34,666 nt of DNA. Source: a virus. Its lineage: Duplodnaviria; Heunggongvirae; Uroviricota; Caudoviricetes. The stretch is from IMG/VR virus record IMGVR_UViG_2909288124_000006, one strand, 5' to 3'. Shown piece by piece: positions 24,202-34,666 of the stretch. The first letter of the stretch is position 1. Each line of letters begins with the position of its first letter. A program made the translations under genes and the position numbers. The notes beneath the pieces were generated by a model. The model did not search any database, was not told the DNA's origin, and saw only the letters and a program-made list of their open reading frames with translations.

Positions 24202-24513
24202 TTACTCAGGAAATAACGCCCGGATATTCCCAGCCATCTGGCTGGTTATCTTAGCCACTGGTGCAGACTGTGCTTCAAACTTTTTTGAGCTGATTTGTGT
24301 CACAGGTAACATCTCATCATCAGCCCATGCGGCCAGTCGGTAAGCCTCTGCCGGATTCGTCTTCAGAAGTGCCAGCCCGGCCAGAAAAGCCACGCGTTGG
24401 CCGCTTTTGCGGGCTTCTGGTGTAAGGCTGTCCAGCCAGGCGCATGCTTCTCCTTCGTTCTTGACGGCAGCTGGCTTCAGATAGAAACTTATTCTTCTGG
24501 TTGGTGTCGTCAT
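24202..24513 (-). CDS. parR: ParR-like centromere-binding adaptor (type II partition)
   Basis: 103 aa directly downstream of parM; ...VAFLAGLALL... resembles R1 ParR region. Confidence 0.7.
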   Translation of the reverse strand: MTTPTRRISFYLKPAAVKNEGEACAWLDSLTPEARKSGQRVAFLAGLALLKTNPAEAYRLAAWADDEMLPVTQISSKKFEAQSAPVAKITSQMAGNIRALFPE

Positions 24514-24517
24514 TGGT

Positions 24518-25477
24518 TTACTCCTTGTTCATTGCGTACAGCCCATTAACCAGAGCAAATTGTGGCCCCCCGTCCGCGATGAAAGTCGCATTAACTCCGC
24601 AGGCTTCGCGGATAGCGGGTGCCACAATCTCCGCCCCGCCACCGACAACCATCACCCGCCCGTAACCCGAAAAAACCGCCAGCGCGCGGATCACGCGTTG
24701 TTTCAGTGTTTCTTCCTTTTCACGAATAACCGCCATCAGGCTGGCGTAATGCGCGTCATTGTGGATGTGCTGGCGCAGCCAGGCTTCATCATGGCGATGT
24801 TCGATAATGGTATTGGCGATGTGGTGACTGGTGCGCATACCGTTAGTGGCCATCACCGACAGTACGGCATCGGCCATAAGAGAAACGCCTACGTGTGGAT
24901 CGCAAAACAGCTGGCTGATACCTGCCAGTTGCCCCTGAACCTTTGCCACATCCAGCGTGGTTCCGCCCAAATCCACAATCAGCAGGGATTCAAACGGACT
25001 CATGTCAGCCAGAGCCTTAAAGCCAGCCGGAATGGATTCAGGCATAACCCGCACGTTACAGATAGTGAATGCTTCGCCGTTCTGGTACTCCACCGGGCGC
25101 ATAACGTTCGCTTTTTTGCGGTTGATGTTGGCCATGTCCGGCTGTGCGTTTGTGTCGAAATACTCGCTCAGTGGCAGGGTGACAACCACATCCACCTCCT
25201 GTGGCGTGATGCCTGATTTGACCAGTGCGTGATGAATGGCAATGACATTCACATCGCTGTACTGGTATTGCGTGTCGGTCGTCTGGACAAAGCGATCGCT
25301 GACCGGATCAAAACCGTAGCGCACGCCATCAAGCATGTAGTTCGCGGGCTGCGTGCCACTGAACGGCGCAGACCATTCCGACTTGAAACTGTTCGGGCTG
25401 ATGGCGTTGCGGCGTTCGCCGTTCTCAGTCCATGCCAGCTTGATGTTGGTGGAGCCGTCGTCGATACAAATTTTCAT
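24518..25477 (-). CDS. parM: ParM/StbA actin-like segregation ATPase
   Basis: 319 aa; IDDGSTNIKL, YSDVNVIAIHHAL, VMPESIPAG, DLGGTTLD motifs matching plasmid R1 ParM as remembered. Confidence 0.9.
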   Translation of the reverse strand: MKICIDDGSTNIKLAWTENGERRNAISPNSFKSEWSAPFSGTQPANYMLDGVRYGFDPVSDRFVQTTDTQYQYSDVNVIAIHHALVKSGITPQEVDVVVTLPLSEYFDTNAQPDMANINRKKANVMRPVEYQNGEAFTICNVRVMPESIPAGFKALADMSPFESLLIVDLGGTTLDVAKVQGQLAGISQLFCDPHVGVSLMADAVLSVMATNGMRTSHHIANTIIEHRHDEAWLRQHIHNDAHYASLMAVIREKEETLKQRVIRALAVFSGYGRVMVVGGGAEIVAPAIREACGVNATFIADGGPQFALVNGLYAMNKE

Positions 25478-28382: not shown

Positions 28383-28748
28383 TTACTTCGTCATGCCATT
28401 CAGGGTGTCGCGGCAGACGGTAGCCAGCCGCTGAATTTCCAGCACGGTGTCTTCTGTGTCGGCATGGCGATGTGTGATGCGGATGCTGTCGGCAATCACA
28501 TCGACGATTGCAGAGGATGGGCGCTGGTAAATGCCAATAACGGACGGGGTACCACCTTCAATGCGGTAAAGCCTGTAATTCCCCTCGTGGCTGTCAATCA
28601 TGTAGCGGCCATCAATAACAATCTTTCCGTCAGCGAGCTGCGGTACAGGCAGGGATTTCAGATACATGTCATAACGATCACGTACGCGAGCGGCAAGATC
28701 ACGCTCTGTGTTGAGCAGGTATTCAAGAAAGTCGTTGGCGAGAATCAT
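28383..28748 (-). CDS. Hypothetical protein (121 aa) immediately upstream of A
   Basis: ORF with tight spacing to A. Confidence 0.5.
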   Translation of the reverse strand: MILANDFLEYLLNTERDLAARVRDRYDMYLKSLPVPQLADGKIVIDGRYMIDSHEGNYRLYRIEGGTPSVIGIYQRPSSAIVDVIADSIRITHRHADTEDTVLEIQRLATVCRDTLNGMTK

Positions 28749-28820
28749 TGCGGCAATCCTCTTGTTACAGATGTGCGAAGGCCTCCCGCCGCAAGGTGCA
28801 GGAAAGGCCCGGAACAGGAA

Positions 28821-29051
28821 TTAATGGAGTTTGTTTTGCTGCTGGATGAGATCCTGAAGAGACAGGAGGTCTTCCGCCAGATAGCTGAATACAGCGGCGC
28901 AGTAGTCGGCTGAAATAGTGCTGTTGAGTCTGTGCAATGTGTTGGATTGCATGATAAAGGCGATGTGTGCAGCGCGGGTGAGTCTGCGATCGATTTCAGT
29001 CTGGATGTGACGACGCTCCGCGATAGTGCGGTGCTGTTTGCGGTTTGCCAT
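28821..29051 (-). CDS. Hypothetical basic protein (76 aa)
   Basis: ORF with SD AAGAGG; its SD lies inside a repeated motif. Confidence 0.4.
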   Translation of the reverse strand: MANRKQHRTIAERRHIQTEIDRRLTRAAHIAFIMQSNTLHRLNSTISADYCAAVFSYLAEDLLSLQDLIQQQNKLH

Positions 29052-29227
29052 GATATGTGGCCTCTTGTAGTAAGTTGTGAAAACTCACCATCCAGAGCTG
29101 CGAAACTGTGGGTGGCGAGACGTACGAGGTTCGCAGTACCGGCTACAAGAGATCCCGGCCCGACCGAAGTCGGCCCCGTACACCCCGCCATAATTCTGAC
29201 GCGAAAAAAACGTGGCAATACAGTACG

Positions 29228-29355
29228 CACAAAAAAACCGCTGGCGCGGTTGTGCGCTCTTGTAGTCAGCAGGCTGCGAAACCCGGCACCCGTTTTATGA
29301 GGTGCAGCGGAAATGTAACCTGACTGATTGCGGCATGGCAAGCGGTTTTTTTGTG
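29228..29355. repeat. Perfect 15-bp inverted repeat (cacaaaaaaaccgct / agcggtttttttgtg) separated by 98 bp
   Basis: Arms at 29228-29242 and 29341-29355. Confidence 0.6.
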
Positions 29356-29418
29356 AGAACGGCATACTAAAAAATCCTGATACTGCTCCGGCCAGCGGTT
29401 TTCACTGGCCGGGTTTAA

Positions 29419-30249
29419 TTACTTCACCGGAACAAACGGAACAGCGGTGTTACTGGTCATGTATTGCGGTAGCGTGCCGTTCCATTTGTTAATCGCTTCC
29501 AGCTCCATAACGCCGGGATTCTGGCGCAGAGCTTCACCGCGTAAACGAATGGCGTCGGCTTCAGCCTGGGCTTTTGTGCGAATGGCATCGGCCTGTCCGG
29601 CTGCTTCTGCGCGTAGCATGTTGGCTTCTGCTTCGCGCTGCTTGACTTCCTGTTCGCGTTGCAGGGTTTTCTGGTTTGCCGTGACTTTGGCGTTAATGCT
29701 GTCGATAACGGTTGGCGGATATTCCGGTTTACCGACATAAGAGAGGCTCATGACCTGAATGCCGATGGGGGTCATCTCTTCCTGAATATCTTTAAGTGCT
29801 GAATCCAGCAGTTCAGACTTACCACCGTCGATAAACTTATCGGTGGTCATTTTGCTGGCCAGTCGGTTGAGTGCATCGGCGATCTTCTGGCGCAGGTCAG
29901 TGTCGGTAATGTCATCCACGCCTTTGCGGTAGGTCTGAAACACTGTAGTAACTTTGGATGGATCAACCTTGTAGGCCACACCGATGTGATAGCCGATGGT
30001 TGTGCCGTCACTCATCTGGAAGCTGAACGGCTCATCGTAGGTCTTCATTTGTTTGAAGGTCGGGAAGATGTAAACCTCGGTATTCCAGCCAGTCCAGTAG
30101 CGGCCAACGCCAACCACTTCGCCGACGCCTTTGTCGTCGCCCAGTTTGTTGACTTTGATGCCCACATTACCTGGCTCAACGCGATCGCAACCAACCAGCA
30201 GGATGGCGGCAAAAAGCGGGAGAATCTGAAAGAGTTTGAATTTCTTCAT
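29419..30249 (-). CDS. SPFH/band-7 domain lipoprotein (lipobox LLVGC with Asp at +2, predicted inner-membrane retention)
   Basis: 276 aa; SPFH-like N-terminal domain then Ala/Glu/Gln-rich coiled-coil; hairpin downstream at about 29383-29408. Confidence 0.8.
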   Translation of the reverse strand: MKKFKLFQILPLFAAILLVGCDRVEPGNVGIKVNKLGDDKGVGEVVGVGRYWTGWNTEVYIFPTFKQMKTYDEPFSFQMSDGTTIGYHIGVAYKVDPSKVTTVFQTYRKGVDDITDTDLRQKIADALNRLASKMTTDKFIDGGKSELLDSALKDIQEEMTPIGIQVMSLSYVGKPEYPPTVIDSINAKVTANQKTLQREQEVKQREAEANMLRAEAAGQADAIRTKAQAEADAIRLRGEALRQNPGVMELEAINKWNGTLPQYMTSNTAVPFVPVK

Positions 30250-30449
30250 TGTTTGATTTCCTTGATGTACTTACTGAAAAGGCGAACAACGCCTGCCGGG
30301 TACAGCATGGCAATAAAAATGCCCAGCAATACCAGGAAGGAGCTGTCTGATGAAATCATTCGGGGGAGTAGTCCTGCATACAGAATGAGAGAGACGAGGA
30401 CGCATACCAGCGCCCACATGTATGCGCGAAACCAGGTCTTTTTGTTCAT
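30246..30449 (-). CDS. Small two-TM membrane protein, translationally coupled (ATGA) to the SPFH gene
   Basis: 67 aa, two hydrophobic helices; stop overlaps SPFH start. Confidence 0.6.
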   Translation of the reverse strand: MNKKTWFRAYMWALVCVLVSLILYAGLLPRMISSDSSFLVLLGIFIAMLYPAGVVRLFSKYIKEIKQ

Positions 30450-30460
30450 ATCGCGGTCCT

Positions 30461-30760
30461 TTACTGGTTAAGGAAAAAATCGAAAACGTTGTCGATGCGT
30501 TGCAGCAGCTCCTGCTGCATTGCTTCCGGCGTTTCTGATTCACCTGGTGACTCCAGCGTCGCGCAAAAATCCTTGATTTCATGATGGAGTGTCAGACGAA
30601 TGGCAGGAGCCATGGTTCTGGCGTGCTCCAGCTCATCCAGCAGTGCCAGCACGGCAGATGGCGAGAGCATTGCGCGAAACGCCAGTAATTTTTGATGCGT
30701 TGCCATTCGTTGCAGGTCAGTCGCCAGTTCGCGTAGTTCCTGGTGGTTGATGGTGCTCAT
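30461..30760 (-). CDS. Hypothetical protein (99 aa)
   Basis: ORF in early operon, overlaps upstream gene stop. Confidence 0.5.
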   Translation of the reverse strand: MSTINHQELRELATDLQRMATHQKLLAFRAMLSPSAVLALLDELEHARTMAPAIRLTLHHEIKDFCATLESPGESETPEAMQQELLQRIDNVFDFFLNQ

Positions 30761-31002
30761 GCTCTGGCTTCCTTCAGTAGCTGGTTAAACAAGTGAGTAA
30801 GCGGGTTGCCACACCCGAACTGCATCGGGTTTACCTGGTAAGAAAAGCGACCACCTGTTTTGCGCTCTTTTCTTATGACTGAACCGCTGCGCCAGAGTCG
30901 GCGTAACTCCGCATTAATGGCTGTGGTTGGGGTATTCAGTGCTGCGGCGATTTCTCCACCGCTACAACCCGGATTGGCGGCGATGTAGTCCAGAATGGTC
31001 AT
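30757..31002 (-). CDS. Small winged-helix-like DNA-binding protein (81 aa)
   Basis: ILDYIAANPGCSGGEIAAALN... resembles HTH; assignment tentative. Confidence 0.45.
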   Translation of the reverse strand: MTILDYIAANPGCSGGEIAAALNTPTTAINAELRRLWRSGSVIRKERKTGGRFSYQVNPMQFGCGNPLTHLFNQLLKEARA

Positions 31003-32770: not shown

Positions 32771-33022
32771 TTATGCTGCTTTACCGCTGATATTTCCGTT
32801 TCGTCTGCCACTTGTTGGCTTAAACAAAAACAGACGGTTTTCCCAGTCGTGCCATTCCTGAGGTGCGTTTTCGATGAGGCGATCGCATGCTTCATCCCAC
32901 GCTTTTCTGTTGATGTAGAGTTCAGCGTTTCCGCCTGGTTTGAGAGGGTCCGCCATATACACCGCAGGTAGCTTTCCTGCTTTGGCCATGCTTACGATGG
33001 CGTCAACGGTCTTTCCGATATA
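32771..33022 (-). CDS. cox: Cox-like excisionase/early repressor (start uncertain; frame is open up to 33235)
   Basis: IGKTVDAIVSMAKAGKLPAVYMADP resembles P2 Cox IGKSTGAVRRMIDKGKLPVIDMTDP; ATG 33022 has SD AAGGA; divergent from C. Confidence 0.6.
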   Translation of the reverse strand, partial: YIGKTVDAIVSMAKAGKLPAVYMADPLKPGGNAELYINRKAWDEACDRLIENAPQEWHDWENRLFLFKPTSGRRNGNISGKAA

Positions 33023-33268
33023 CATCGCAAATCCTTCTTTTGACAGGAGATGCGAGGGATTTTCTGAAAGTCGAATCTCTTCACGTTCACGTGCTTTGCG
33101 TCCTGTTTTTTGATGCTCCCCTTCTGGCATTTCTGGCAGGTGATCGCATCGTGTTCCGCAAAGTGACTCAGGCGCGTTTTGAGTGCTTTCTTGCATCTGA
33201 TATCCTCCGCCATTGGTGCTTTTTCTAATTGGCACTAGTTGGAACCACTTAGAACATTCTTTTGCTGT

Positions 33269-33295
33269 TCATATGTGGTGTTAATCTACACATAT
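33269..33295. promoter_or_regulatory. Inverted repeat catatgtg N11 cacatatg in the cox/C intergenic switch region; operator candidate
   Basis: 8-bp perfect arms 15 bp upstream of C start; overlaps C ribosome-binding region. Confidence 0.4.
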
Positions 33296-33310
33296 GTAGG
33301 AGTTTGTCAA

Positions 33311-33604
33311 ATGGACATTCCTCAAAAAATTCGCGTCATGCGTAAATCTGAAGATCTGACTCAGCGGGAATTCGCTGATATGATTGGAATTTCTTATTCT
33401 GCTCTGACCAGTTATGAGTATGGTCGTAACCTTCCTGGTCTTGAGATCACTATCAAGCTTTTCAAGCACCCGAGATTTTCTAAATACCGCGACTGGTTTT
33501 TGTTTGATGAAGTTGCACCCAAGGCCGGGCAGGTTGTACCGGCTCTCGCACACATTGGGCAAGACGAAGCGGAATCATCCCGCTCCGGCAAGAAAACTGG
33601 TTAA
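33311..33604 (+). CDS. C: Immunity repressor C
   Basis: VMRKSEDLTQREFADMIGISYSALTSYEYGRN... and C-terminal PALAHIGQDE...SGKKTG resemble P2 C; start ATG 33311 with SD AGGAG. Confidence 0.85.
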   Translation: MDIPQKIRVMRKSEDLTQREFADMIGISYSALTSYEYGRNLPGLEITIKLFKHPRFSKYRDWFLFDEVAPKAGQVVPALAHIGQDEAESSRSGKKTG

Positions 33605-33670
33605 CGGTTCATCAGGCATTTATTTCCCAGAGCTGTGATCAAGATGATGTTTTCATTGGAGGGCTTCCTT

Positions 33671-34666
33671 ATGTCGATTAAGAAGCTCGCTAATGGCAAA
33701 TTTTGTGTGGACGTGCGGCCTGCTGGATCAGAAGGAAAGAGATTCAGGCGGCGATTTGATACTCGTGGTGAGGCTGTTTTGTATGAGCGTCATGTATTGC
33801 AGCATTACCACGACAAAGACTGGGTTGATAAGCCAACAGAACGGCGGTCGCTGAGGGAGCTGCTGGATTGTTGGTGGTTGTATCACGGTAAAAATCATCC
33901 TTACGGTGCGATGGAGCGAGTGCGTATTGCTGCGGTCATTAGTGATCTTGAAAGTATTAATGTTACACGCAGTGATCAACTTACTCGTAAAAACATAATT
34001 AATTATCGGTTATTGTTGCTTAACCGCGGAATAAAACAATCCACGGTTAATCGTTATTGCGCAATGATGAGTGGTTTTTTCACAAAACTAATTGACGCAG
34101 AGGAATATTCTGGGGCTAATCCGTTTCATGATGTGAAAAAACTTAATATCAAACAGCCTGAAATGGCTTATTTGTATCATGAAGATATTCCACGATTACT
34201 GGAGTTGTTATCAGGTGATGAATTAAAAGCCGTCTTGTTGTGTCTGGCAACAGGTGGAAGATGGAGTGAAGTTGCAAATATCAAGGGGGAGCATGTTATT
34301 AGCGGCAAAGTCATTTTTATGGAAACAAAAAATGGGAAGCGTCGCGTTATACCTATATCGTCAGAACTGGAGTGCATGATTAAAACAAAGGCCACTGGTC
34401 GTTTAATTTATCCAAGTTATTCTGCTGTCAGAACGGCTATCAGAAAGGTGAGGCCCGATCTTCCTGAAGGGCAGTCGATACATGTTTTACGGCATACCTT
34501 TGCTACTCACTTCATGATTAATGGTGGGAATATCATCACGTTGCAGAGAATACTTGGACATAGCACTATTCAGCAGACGATGACTTATGCCCATTTTGCA
34601 CCGGATTATCTGCAGGATGCTGTGCGCTTTAATCCTGTGGCTGAGTTGTCCAGATATTGCCCATAA
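33671..34666 (+). CDS. int: Tyrosine integrase (P2 Int family)
   Basis: HVLRHTFATHFMINGGNIITLQRILGH...YAHFAPDYLQDA; start ATG 33671 (MSIKKLANG) with SD GGAGGG; stop is the last codon of the window. Confidence 0.92.
   Translation: MSIKKLANGKFCVDVRPAGSEGKRFRRRFDTRGEAVLYERHVLQHYHDKDWVDKPTERRSLRELLDCWWLYHGKNHPYGAMERVRIAAVISDLESINVTRSDQLTRKNIINYRLLLLNRGIKQSTVNRYCAMMSGFFTKLIDAEEYSGANPFHDVKKLNIKQPEMAYLYHEDIPRLLELLSGDELKAVLLCLATGGRWSEVANIKGEHVISGKVIFMETKNGKRRVIPISSELECMIKTKATGRLIYPSYSAVRTAIRKVRPDLPEGQSIHVLRHTFATHFMINGGNIITLQRILGHSTIQQTMTYAHFAPDYLQDAVRFNPVAELSRYCP

Follow-up and report, generated by a model that had tools for sequence, protein, structure and literature searches.

The window, by which we mean the whole stretch of 34,666 nt analyzed here, is a P88-like prophage (Xuanwuvirus, Peduoviridae; P2-type), and phage P88 itself matched positions 28700–29500 at 87.8% identity. 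The minus-strand early operon ended with an SPFH lipoprotein gene (29419–30249), after which came a leader with an RNA module and, 3' of it, a 76-aa gene, a 121-aa ORF, gene A, and ParM/StbB-like genes (Table 1). A gene for a winged-helix protein (30757–31002) was located upstream of the module. Homology to many relatives ended at ~29355, which is the outer end of an inverted-repeat arm, and the cargo upstream of this point varied.

The SPFH/Band-7 lipoprotein gene and a 67-aa membrane-like ORF (30246–30449) made up a variable cargo cassette (29356–30449). In many relatives other sequence replaced this cassette, with the junction at ~29355/29356 at the outer edge of the arm. Directly downstream of gene A, genes for a ParM (StbA_N/ParM) and a Plasmid_stab_B protein (24202–25477, minus strand) were found as in P88, which hints at a plasmid-like maintenance option.

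Table 1 Coordinates of the RNA elements, recognition and target segments, and genes in the window
Feature	Position	Strand	Evidence or remark
Integrase gene	33635–34666	+	
C-type HTH repressor gene	33239–33604	+	Divergent from cox
cox	32771–33235	-	
Upstream arm of 15-nt inverted repeat	29355–29341	-	RNA sense CACAAAAAAACCGCU; A-tract directly 5' of -35 box
Promoter-like site for IsrK-type RNA	29341–29312	-	-35 TTGCCA 29341–29336, 18-nt spacer, -10 TACATT 29317–29312
IsrK/seqA-type small RNA with target copy 1	29305–29231	-	Rfam RF01394, 66.7 bits (gathering 50), full length
b1 target, GUUUCGCAG	29282–29274	-	In and beside loop of IsrK hairpin 2; pairs with b', covariation
a1 target, CUACAAGAG	29265–29257	-	Pairs with a'; mismatch-free in 58/59 distinct relatives
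Predicted intrinsic terminator of IsrK	29251–29228	-	Stem AACCGC/GCGGUU (6 bp, GC-rich), loop GCCA, U7
C4/CI-type antisense RNA	29195–29108	-	Rfam RF01695, 78.5 bits (gathering 45); long closing stem around two hairpins
a' recognition segment, CUCUUGUAG	29151–29143	-	Loop of second C4 hairpin (C4 alignment)
b' recognition segment, CUGCGAACC	29136–29128	-	Single-stranded joint 3' of second C4 hairpin
b2 target, GUUUCGCAG	29106–29098	-	Directly 3' of C4
a2 target, CUACAAGAG	29070–29061	-	Overlaps SD AAGAGG (29066–29061) of 76-aa gene
76-aa homologue of P4 derepression protein epsilon	29051–28821	-	BLASTP against P4 epsilon
121-aa ORF	28748–28383	-	phrog_3237; downstream, same transcription unit
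940-aa P2-type replication initiator, gene A family	28376–25554	-	PF05840, 434.9 bits; last gene downstream of module

The product of the 76-aa gene showed 30% identity to P4 epsilon over 66 residues (BLASTP, E = 4e-9) and fell into phrog_3688, where homologues are named 'derepression protein' and most carry PF25738. The score against PF25738 was 22.7 bits for the window protein (cut-off 27), 31.8 bits for the P88 orthologue, and 170 bits for P4 epsilon. NCBIfam gave no match for the two downstream proteins or for the ORFs overlapping the RNAs. In the 940-aa initiator, the Pfam GPA domain occupied residues 179–503, with sizeable N- and C-terminal extensions on either side. P88 was isolated by mitomycin C induction (PMC5285337), which is compatible with an anti-repressor and no proof of one.

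When the Rfam models were run over the window with their curated thresholds, exactly two matches were obtained, both in the leader and both on the minus strand, namely the IsrK/seqA-type and the C4/CI-type RNA. The RF01695 match was full length (model positions 1–87 of 87), while the Rfam c4-a1b1 model reached only 20.5 bits in the window against its gathering threshold of 46.7. Consensus scans predicted a promoter and an intrinsic terminator for the IsrK-type RNA. The predicted start at ~29305 coincided with position 1 of the isrK match, and the -35 and -10 hexamers of the promoter-like site were conserved across the P88 family. The predicted terminator (29251–29231) was placed at the 3' end of the isrK match, and its stem was 100% paired and invariant in relatives. 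The three helices of C4 were likewise 100% paired across 59 distinct sequences, with double-sided changes in the C4 stems at columns 181/254, 191/244, 197/206, and 198/205.

A separate promoter for C4 (TTGCCA 29218/AATTAT 29190) was considered and rejected. Its -35 box was polymorphic in relatives (TTGCCA or TCGCCA), and the predicted start would land within the closing stem of C4. The non-conserved -35 box of this sole candidate directly 5' of C4 fits processing of C4 from a transcript of the IsrK promoter. By analogy with known members of the family, which RNase P processes at the 5' end to stable RNAs of ~77 nt, we infer that C4 is excised from a longer transcript and acts in trans.

The initial annotation of this leader had described a bipartite motif in two direct copies (29062–29106 and 29257–29282) with a near reverse complement between them (29128–29151), and all three copies were found in these places. 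One part of the motif, CTCTTGTAG, occurred at 29062 and 29257 and as its reverse complement at 29143, and nowhere else on either strand of the 34.7-kb window. The other part, GCTGCGAAAC, was present twice (29097 and 29273), and its near reverse complement, GGTTCGCAG, lay at 29128–29136. The perfect 15-bp inverted repeat noted at 29228–29242 and 29341–29355 was also present (CACAAAAAAACCGCT/AGCGGTTTTTTTGTG) and extended to 28 nt at 82% complementarity. Among 300 dinucleotide-preserving shuffles of 28800–29700, the longest perfect inverted repeat was at most 13 nt (mean 8.5), compared to the 15 nt observed. As had been claimed, the downstream copy of the bipartite motif holds the SD of the 76-aa ORF: the minus-strand RNA reads CUACAAGAGG, with AAGAGG 9 nt 5' of the ATG at 29051. 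The strongest evidence that these repeats exceed chance came from comparative data.

Since the a' part of the inverted copy lies in a C4 hairpin loop and the b' part in a joint, the two direct copies are to be read as the target sites of C4, b1/a1 in the IsrK-type RNA and b2/a2 at the 76-aa gene. The a-to-b spacings of the three copies differed (7, 6, and 27 nt).

To compare these segments among relatives, we searched viral contigs with the 76-aa protein, which yielded 80 loci, and aligned 59 distinct P88-family leaders. In this alignment, a near-invariant scaffold was made up of the promoter, hairpin 1 of IsrK and its terminator, the stems of C4, and the region around the start codon. The six specificity segments were hypervariable, with a mean column entropy of 0.709 bits compared to 0.157 bits elsewhere. 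The 59 leaders comprised 12 types of a' and 5 of b', occurring in 17 combinations, which indicates that the a and b parts reassort, and the segments changed in lockstep. The window type was CUCUUGUAG/CUGCGAAC, and another type of the family was CUGUAGUUG/GUGGAAAC.

The proposed pairing of the central inverted copy with the one or the other flanking copy in the minus-strand RNA was supported by covariation across homologous phages. Both pairings showed very strong covariation and were conserved with many compensatory changes in the 59 distinct leaders. Between a'/b' and a2/b2, 98.5% of cells were paired, compared to 74.8% in shuffles and no more than 49% in slid controls. Double-sided changes were seen in 10 of 17 base pairs, and 199 cells were compensatory as against 52 when shuffled, a value reached in none of 500 shuffles. 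The figures for a'/b' with a1/b1 were 99.7% paired cells (75.2% in shuffles, no more than 48% in slid controls), double-sided changes in 11 of 17 pairs, and 204 compensatory cells (52 when shuffled; 0 of 500 shuffles). Cognate a'–a1 helices had no mismatch in 58 of the 59 leaders, whereas non-cognate a'–a2 combinations had a median of 3 mismatches. The b helix kept one single mismatch, which was conserved in all five b-types. One lineage (L037/L038/L043) carried a G·U wobble at the same position in both targets, with U where exact repeats need C, which points to RNA pairing on the minus strand and against identical DNA sites for a protein. Judged from these alignments, both C4–target pairings were shown to be under strong selection.

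A third candidate target, the a3/b3-like sequence GGCCUUCGCACAUCUGUAACAAGAGG at the RBS of the 121-aa ORF (28757–28785, minus strand), was tried and rejected. It was constant whatever the C4 type and is therefore no C4 target. It does resemble the b/a target of the window's own C4 type, a resemblance that is probably coincidental or ancestral.

The layout was compared with three known systems. In the immunity region of P4, the promoter PLE is followed by seqA, the CI RNA/seqB, and seqC, and then by epsilon, orf151, orf106, and alpha. P4 matched the same two Rfam families as the window, with order and strand also in agreement (isrK 8692–8615, C4 8507–8420). In both, the IsrK/seqA element is directly preceded by a promoter (a predicted one in the window), the a and b parts occupy corresponding places, and the SD of the first downstream ORF is covered, in P4 by seqC. 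Both also have a homologous derepression protein and then a replication gene downstream, the order in the window being isrK, C4, the epsilon-like gene, orf121, and gene A. Unlike P4, the window represents an entire P2-type phage that encodes a C repressor, Cox, and an integrase, and given its C repressor gene the RNA would not be the sole immunity factor, as it is in P4, where immunity operates through premature termination of transcription. The epsilon-like gene starts directly at the seqC equivalent, whereas P4 has an intervening short ORF; the replication protein is a gene-A-type initiator, whereas that of P4 is the alpha primase-helicase; and P4 is without the 15-nt arm 5' of its promoter. 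The synteny with P4, together with the homology to epsilon, suggests a module of a known kind that is here placed within a P2-type early operon.

The immI region of P1/P7 consists of a1b1, the c4 antisense RNA, a2b2, icd, and ant. The a2/b2 copy masks the RBS of icd, a short leader ORF coupled in translation to ant; this keeps the anti-repressor silent and serves as a second tier beside the protein repressor. Immunity specificity resides in a few a'/b' bases with matching changes in the targets. The studies of immI are said to be those of Citron and Schuster in 1990, Biere, Citron and Schuster in 1992, and Hartmann et al. in 1995. The window resembles immI in having a C4-family RNA between two bipartite target copies, of which the downstream one lies at an RBS. 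It differs in that there is no icd-type leader ORF, the a2 segment overlapping the SD of the 76-aa gene itself, and in that the upstream target lies within an IsrK-type RNA with its own predicted intrinsic terminator. Pfam and phrog searches of the window found no Ant/KilA-type anti-repressor homologue. The number of specificity types in the P88 family (12 x 5) is far above the classic pair of P1 and P7.

The IsrK/STnc1160/orf45-anrP region of Salmonella Gifsy-1 shares with the window an IsrK RNA with a terminator and a C4-like RNA downstream (PMC4825925). In Gifsy-1, the IsrK terminator is partially read through, the C4-like RNA is processed, and the anti-repressor gene is controlled at translation (PMC4825925). 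Alternative cis structures have been demonstrated there, and free IsrK activates translation of the downstream anti-repressor (PMC4825925). A cis structure between the middle of IsrK and the downstream region is common to both, as published for Gifsy-1 (PMC4825925) and as seen in the minimum free energy (MFE) fold of the window. Unlike in Gifsy-1, the downstream gene of the window is epsilon-like and not Rha/AnrP-like, no orf45-type coupled ORF was called, and the module stands in a P2-type early operon upstream of gene A and has the additional 15-nt arm. The equivalence of IsrK–C4 and seqA–CI has been stated previously (PMC3632133) and was discussed for Gifsy-1 (PMC4825925). P88, P4, and three lambdoid phages all had the same isrK and C4 pair. 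The three lambdoid phages had their own complementary a/b segments, and the pair was located directly before Rha-type anti-repressor genes in the early-right operon; the lambdoid Escherichia coli relatives have the same layout as Gifsy-1.

Taken together, the region is very probably an RNA-based second-tier immunity module of a P88-like prophage, homologous to seqA–CI–seqC of P4, a1b1–c4–a2b2 of P1/P7, and IsrK–STnc1160 of Gifsy-1. On the strength of this homology, we read the module as conferring immunity in trans and not as a simple switch within a cis leader. The trans action of the C4 module, its processing by RNase P, and polarity through Rho are properties of P1, P4, and Gifsy-1 that are transferred here. 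On this analogy, most transcripts from the IsrK promoter would stop at the terminator and give an IsrK-type RNA of ~75 nt. Read-through transcripts would be processed, with RNase P acting at the 5' end, to a stable C4 RNA (88-nt match). C4 would pair in trans with a2/b2 and block translation of the epsilon-like anti-repressor, and, once translation is lost, Rho would probably terminate transcription prematurely ahead of gene A. Competition for C4 by the a1/b1 copy, whether in cis or on free IsrK RNA, may tune or relieve the block. The a/b types would represent immunity specificities, with a resident prophage able to silence an incoming phage only if both are of one type. The diversity of a/b types is as expected under trans-acting, type-specific immunity.

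The initial annotation had read the leader as a translational or attenuation switch made of mutually exclusive hairpins. RNA pairing and coverage of the RBS were retained from that reading, but the central copy turned out to be part of a discrete, folded antisense RNA gene, and the upstream copy to belong to a second, distinct small RNA that has a promoter-like site and a predicted terminator of its own. The suggested folding of the minus-strand RNA gave a divided result. The MFE fold of the leader (29305–29040) paired a1b1 with a'b' in cis, resembling the published 'structure A', but the whole-RNA duplex energies of C4 with IsrK and with the a2b2 leader, calculated for the single sequence, were only slightly better than those of shuffles (26/500 and 38/500, respectively) and were for this reason left out as evidence. 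A purely cis switch, in which the central copy alternates between the flanking copies within one transcript and no diffusible antisense RNA is made, is improbable. Such a switch would agree with the MFE fold and with the alternative structures demonstrated in Gifsy-1 (PMC4825925), and the covariation is equally compatible with pairing in cis and in trans; however, the central copy lies within a conserved, independently folding RNA whose family is known as excised and trans-acting, and its recognition segments occupy a loop and a single-stranded joint, as is typical of antisense RNAs. Furthermore, a cis switch offers no obvious reason for the combinatorial diversification of specificity, whereas trans-acting immunity gives one.

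A set of protein-binding sites had been offered as the alternative. Hardly credible is a reading in which the three copies are DNA sites of a phage protein and co-vary as the specificity of the protein shifts between phages: identical inverted sites would mimic complementarity and the winged-helix protein gene does lie upstream, but the target U of the L037/L038/L043 lineage makes a G·U wobble in RNA and mismatched sites in DNA, the single b-helix mismatch is conserved in all five b-types, the inverted copy coincides precisely with the unpaired parts of an RNA fold that covariation supports, and the three unequal a–b spacings would be awkward for one protein.

The 15-bp inverted repeat is real, but it is separate from the a/b system of the antisense RNA module. 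Its second arm (29242–29228) consists of the terminator 3' half, the U-tract, and GUG, and the other arm is located 5' of the -35 box. This upstream arm holds AACCGC, the 5' half of the IsrK terminator stem, and so would compete for the terminator 3' half. Lying at about -36 to -50 of the IsrK promoter, it would be transcribed only from starts further upstream. All epsilon-type loci had the arm, even those variants whose promoter spacer had diverged (duplex energies of about -27 to -30); Rha-type lambdoid loci (-12 to -20) and P4 lacked it. Covariation was uninformative either way for this repeat, because 14 of its 15 pairs never vary in the family.

Equilibrium folding was used to examine whether the arm could sequester the terminator. 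In the window, the probability of the terminator stem was 0.84 for RNA starting at 29305, 0.01–0.04 for RNA starting at 29360 or 29420, and 0.42 for RNA starting at 29520. Among 91 loci with the arm and 35 without it, the median probabilities were 0.86 and 0.84, respectively, with the 5' end at the predicted start; 0.01 and 0.96 with the 5' end 55 nt upstream; 0.10 and 0.13 at 115 nt upstream; and 0.33 and 0.92 at 225 nt upstream. The modeled support for sequestration was therefore mixed, being clear with the 5' end just upstream of the arm and inconsistent in longer contexts.

Whether the complementarity of the repeat is without function is an evenly balanced question. The arms may simply be UP-element-like A-tract/promoter DNA on one side and the U-tract and stem of a terminator on the other, with the additional matching bases left over from an inverted terminator duplication. 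They could be invariant for independent reasons, and hence show no covariation, and the presence of the terminator 5' half in the arm suggests common descent. In addition, exact complementarity is not always kept, as the arms of L216/L237/L290 and of L239 have A5 against U7, and L016 (G to A in the upstream arm) and L043 carry uncompensated changes. What speaks for a function is that a perfect 15-mer was never reached in 300 shuffles, that eight positions other than A/T also match, and that the arm was kept in all epsilon-type loci despite spacer divergence while being absent from Rha-type lambdoid phages and P4. Moreover, L042 shortens both runs by one base, and a loop change in L239 turns a C·U mismatch into G·U. 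We regard a functional RNA role of the 15-bp repeat as possible, with a likelihood ranging from rather low to at best even.

A joint reading of these observations can only be put forward tentatively, and we consider it rather unlikely as a whole. It takes the arm as a start-site-dependent antiterminator and the 12 x 5 reassorting a/b types as a combinatorial RNA 'barcode' of superinfection immunity among P2-type phages, and supposes that the CI–epsilon module of P4 shares its origin with helper-type phages. An RNA begun at the P2-type early promoter would include the arm, which would capture the 3' half of the terminator of IsrK, and transcription would continue into the epsilon-like gene and gene A. 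An RNA begun at the IsrK promoter would not contain the arm and would end at the terminator, yielding the small RNA. For P2-type phages gene A is essential, and lambdoid phages have N-type antitermination; we know of no N-type antitermination in the P2-type early operon. An essential gene A located 3' of a strong terminator, in an operon without known N-type antitermination, would provide a rationale for an antiterminator arm, and the lambdoid carriers of the module, with N-type antitermination, would do without it.

A second perfect inverted repeat of 12 nt (GCCAGCGGTTTT/AAAACCGCTGGC; 29391–29402 and 29234–29245) connects a hairpin just after the SPFH stop codon (29389–29413) with the terminator of IsrK, at its loop and 3' half. 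GC(C/A)AGCGGTTTT occurs in three related copies (29337, 29390, and 29234, the last inverted), suggesting that a terminator-like element has been duplicated.

The region is common in E. coli. Among 5426 complete genomes, 1395 (about a quarter) matched at least part of 28700–29500, 888 of them at coverage of at least 80%. An exact 30-mer scan of one-genome-per-species contigs gave no match. In a loose C4 pattern scan of viral contigs, the matches from L082 onwards were isolated hits in unrelated metagenome contigs and were left out.

The kind of system described here is well known and is detected by curated models, but its setting, a P2-type early operon with an epsilon-like gene, is undescribed so far, and the searched literature held no description of the RNA module in P88-type phages. 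According to a survey of P4-like satellites, delta alone among the P4-specific genes has clear homologues in P2-like phages (PMC8628076). Our comparison shows that the cassette for RNA immunity and derepression known from their satellite P4 is also present in P88-group phages of the P2 type, and it assigns a probable function to a stretch that is unannotated or mis-annotated ('ash family protein', 'hypothetical protein'). The 17 recognition combinations in a constant scaffold represent a natural experiment for antisense specificity and for the rules of phage heteroimmunity. The combinatorial specificity repertoire and the family-specific inverted repeat are the points of moderate interest.

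The 'ash' label can probably be traced to the RNA genes. An ORF that spans the RNA module (28745–29365, minus strand) matched Pfam Phage_ASH (PF10554; 24.4 bits, residues 17–101), and the match spans exactly the isrK–C4–a2b2 DNA (29062–29317). In P4, PF10554 matched the old 'cI gene product' ORF over the CI RNA (contig L325, 8168–8584) and not epsilon, which corresponds to PF25738. 'Ash family protein' annotations at this locus are therefore probably translated RNA genes. PF10554 was used as the epsilon marker in a survey of P4-like elements (PMC8628076).

Single members of the comparison deviated in their recognition segments. In L016 (IMGVR_UViG_2565956729_000013; leader upstream of 2501), the C4 loop CUGUAGUUG had 2 mismatches with each of its own targets (CAACCAAAG). 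This was the sole family member with a C4 loop non-cognate to both of its own targets, and it may be a recent recombinant with impaired self-repression. L025 had a non-cognate b1. The b' segment of P4 (UUCUCAC) resembles the target of the UUGAGAAC type. In P88-family members with GUGGAAAC as b' (e.g., L006), the b targets share their sense with b' (UUUCCAC) of the lambdoid phage PhiR63_1 (L202, 2563–2650), suggesting that C4 RNAs of different prophages could pair with each other.
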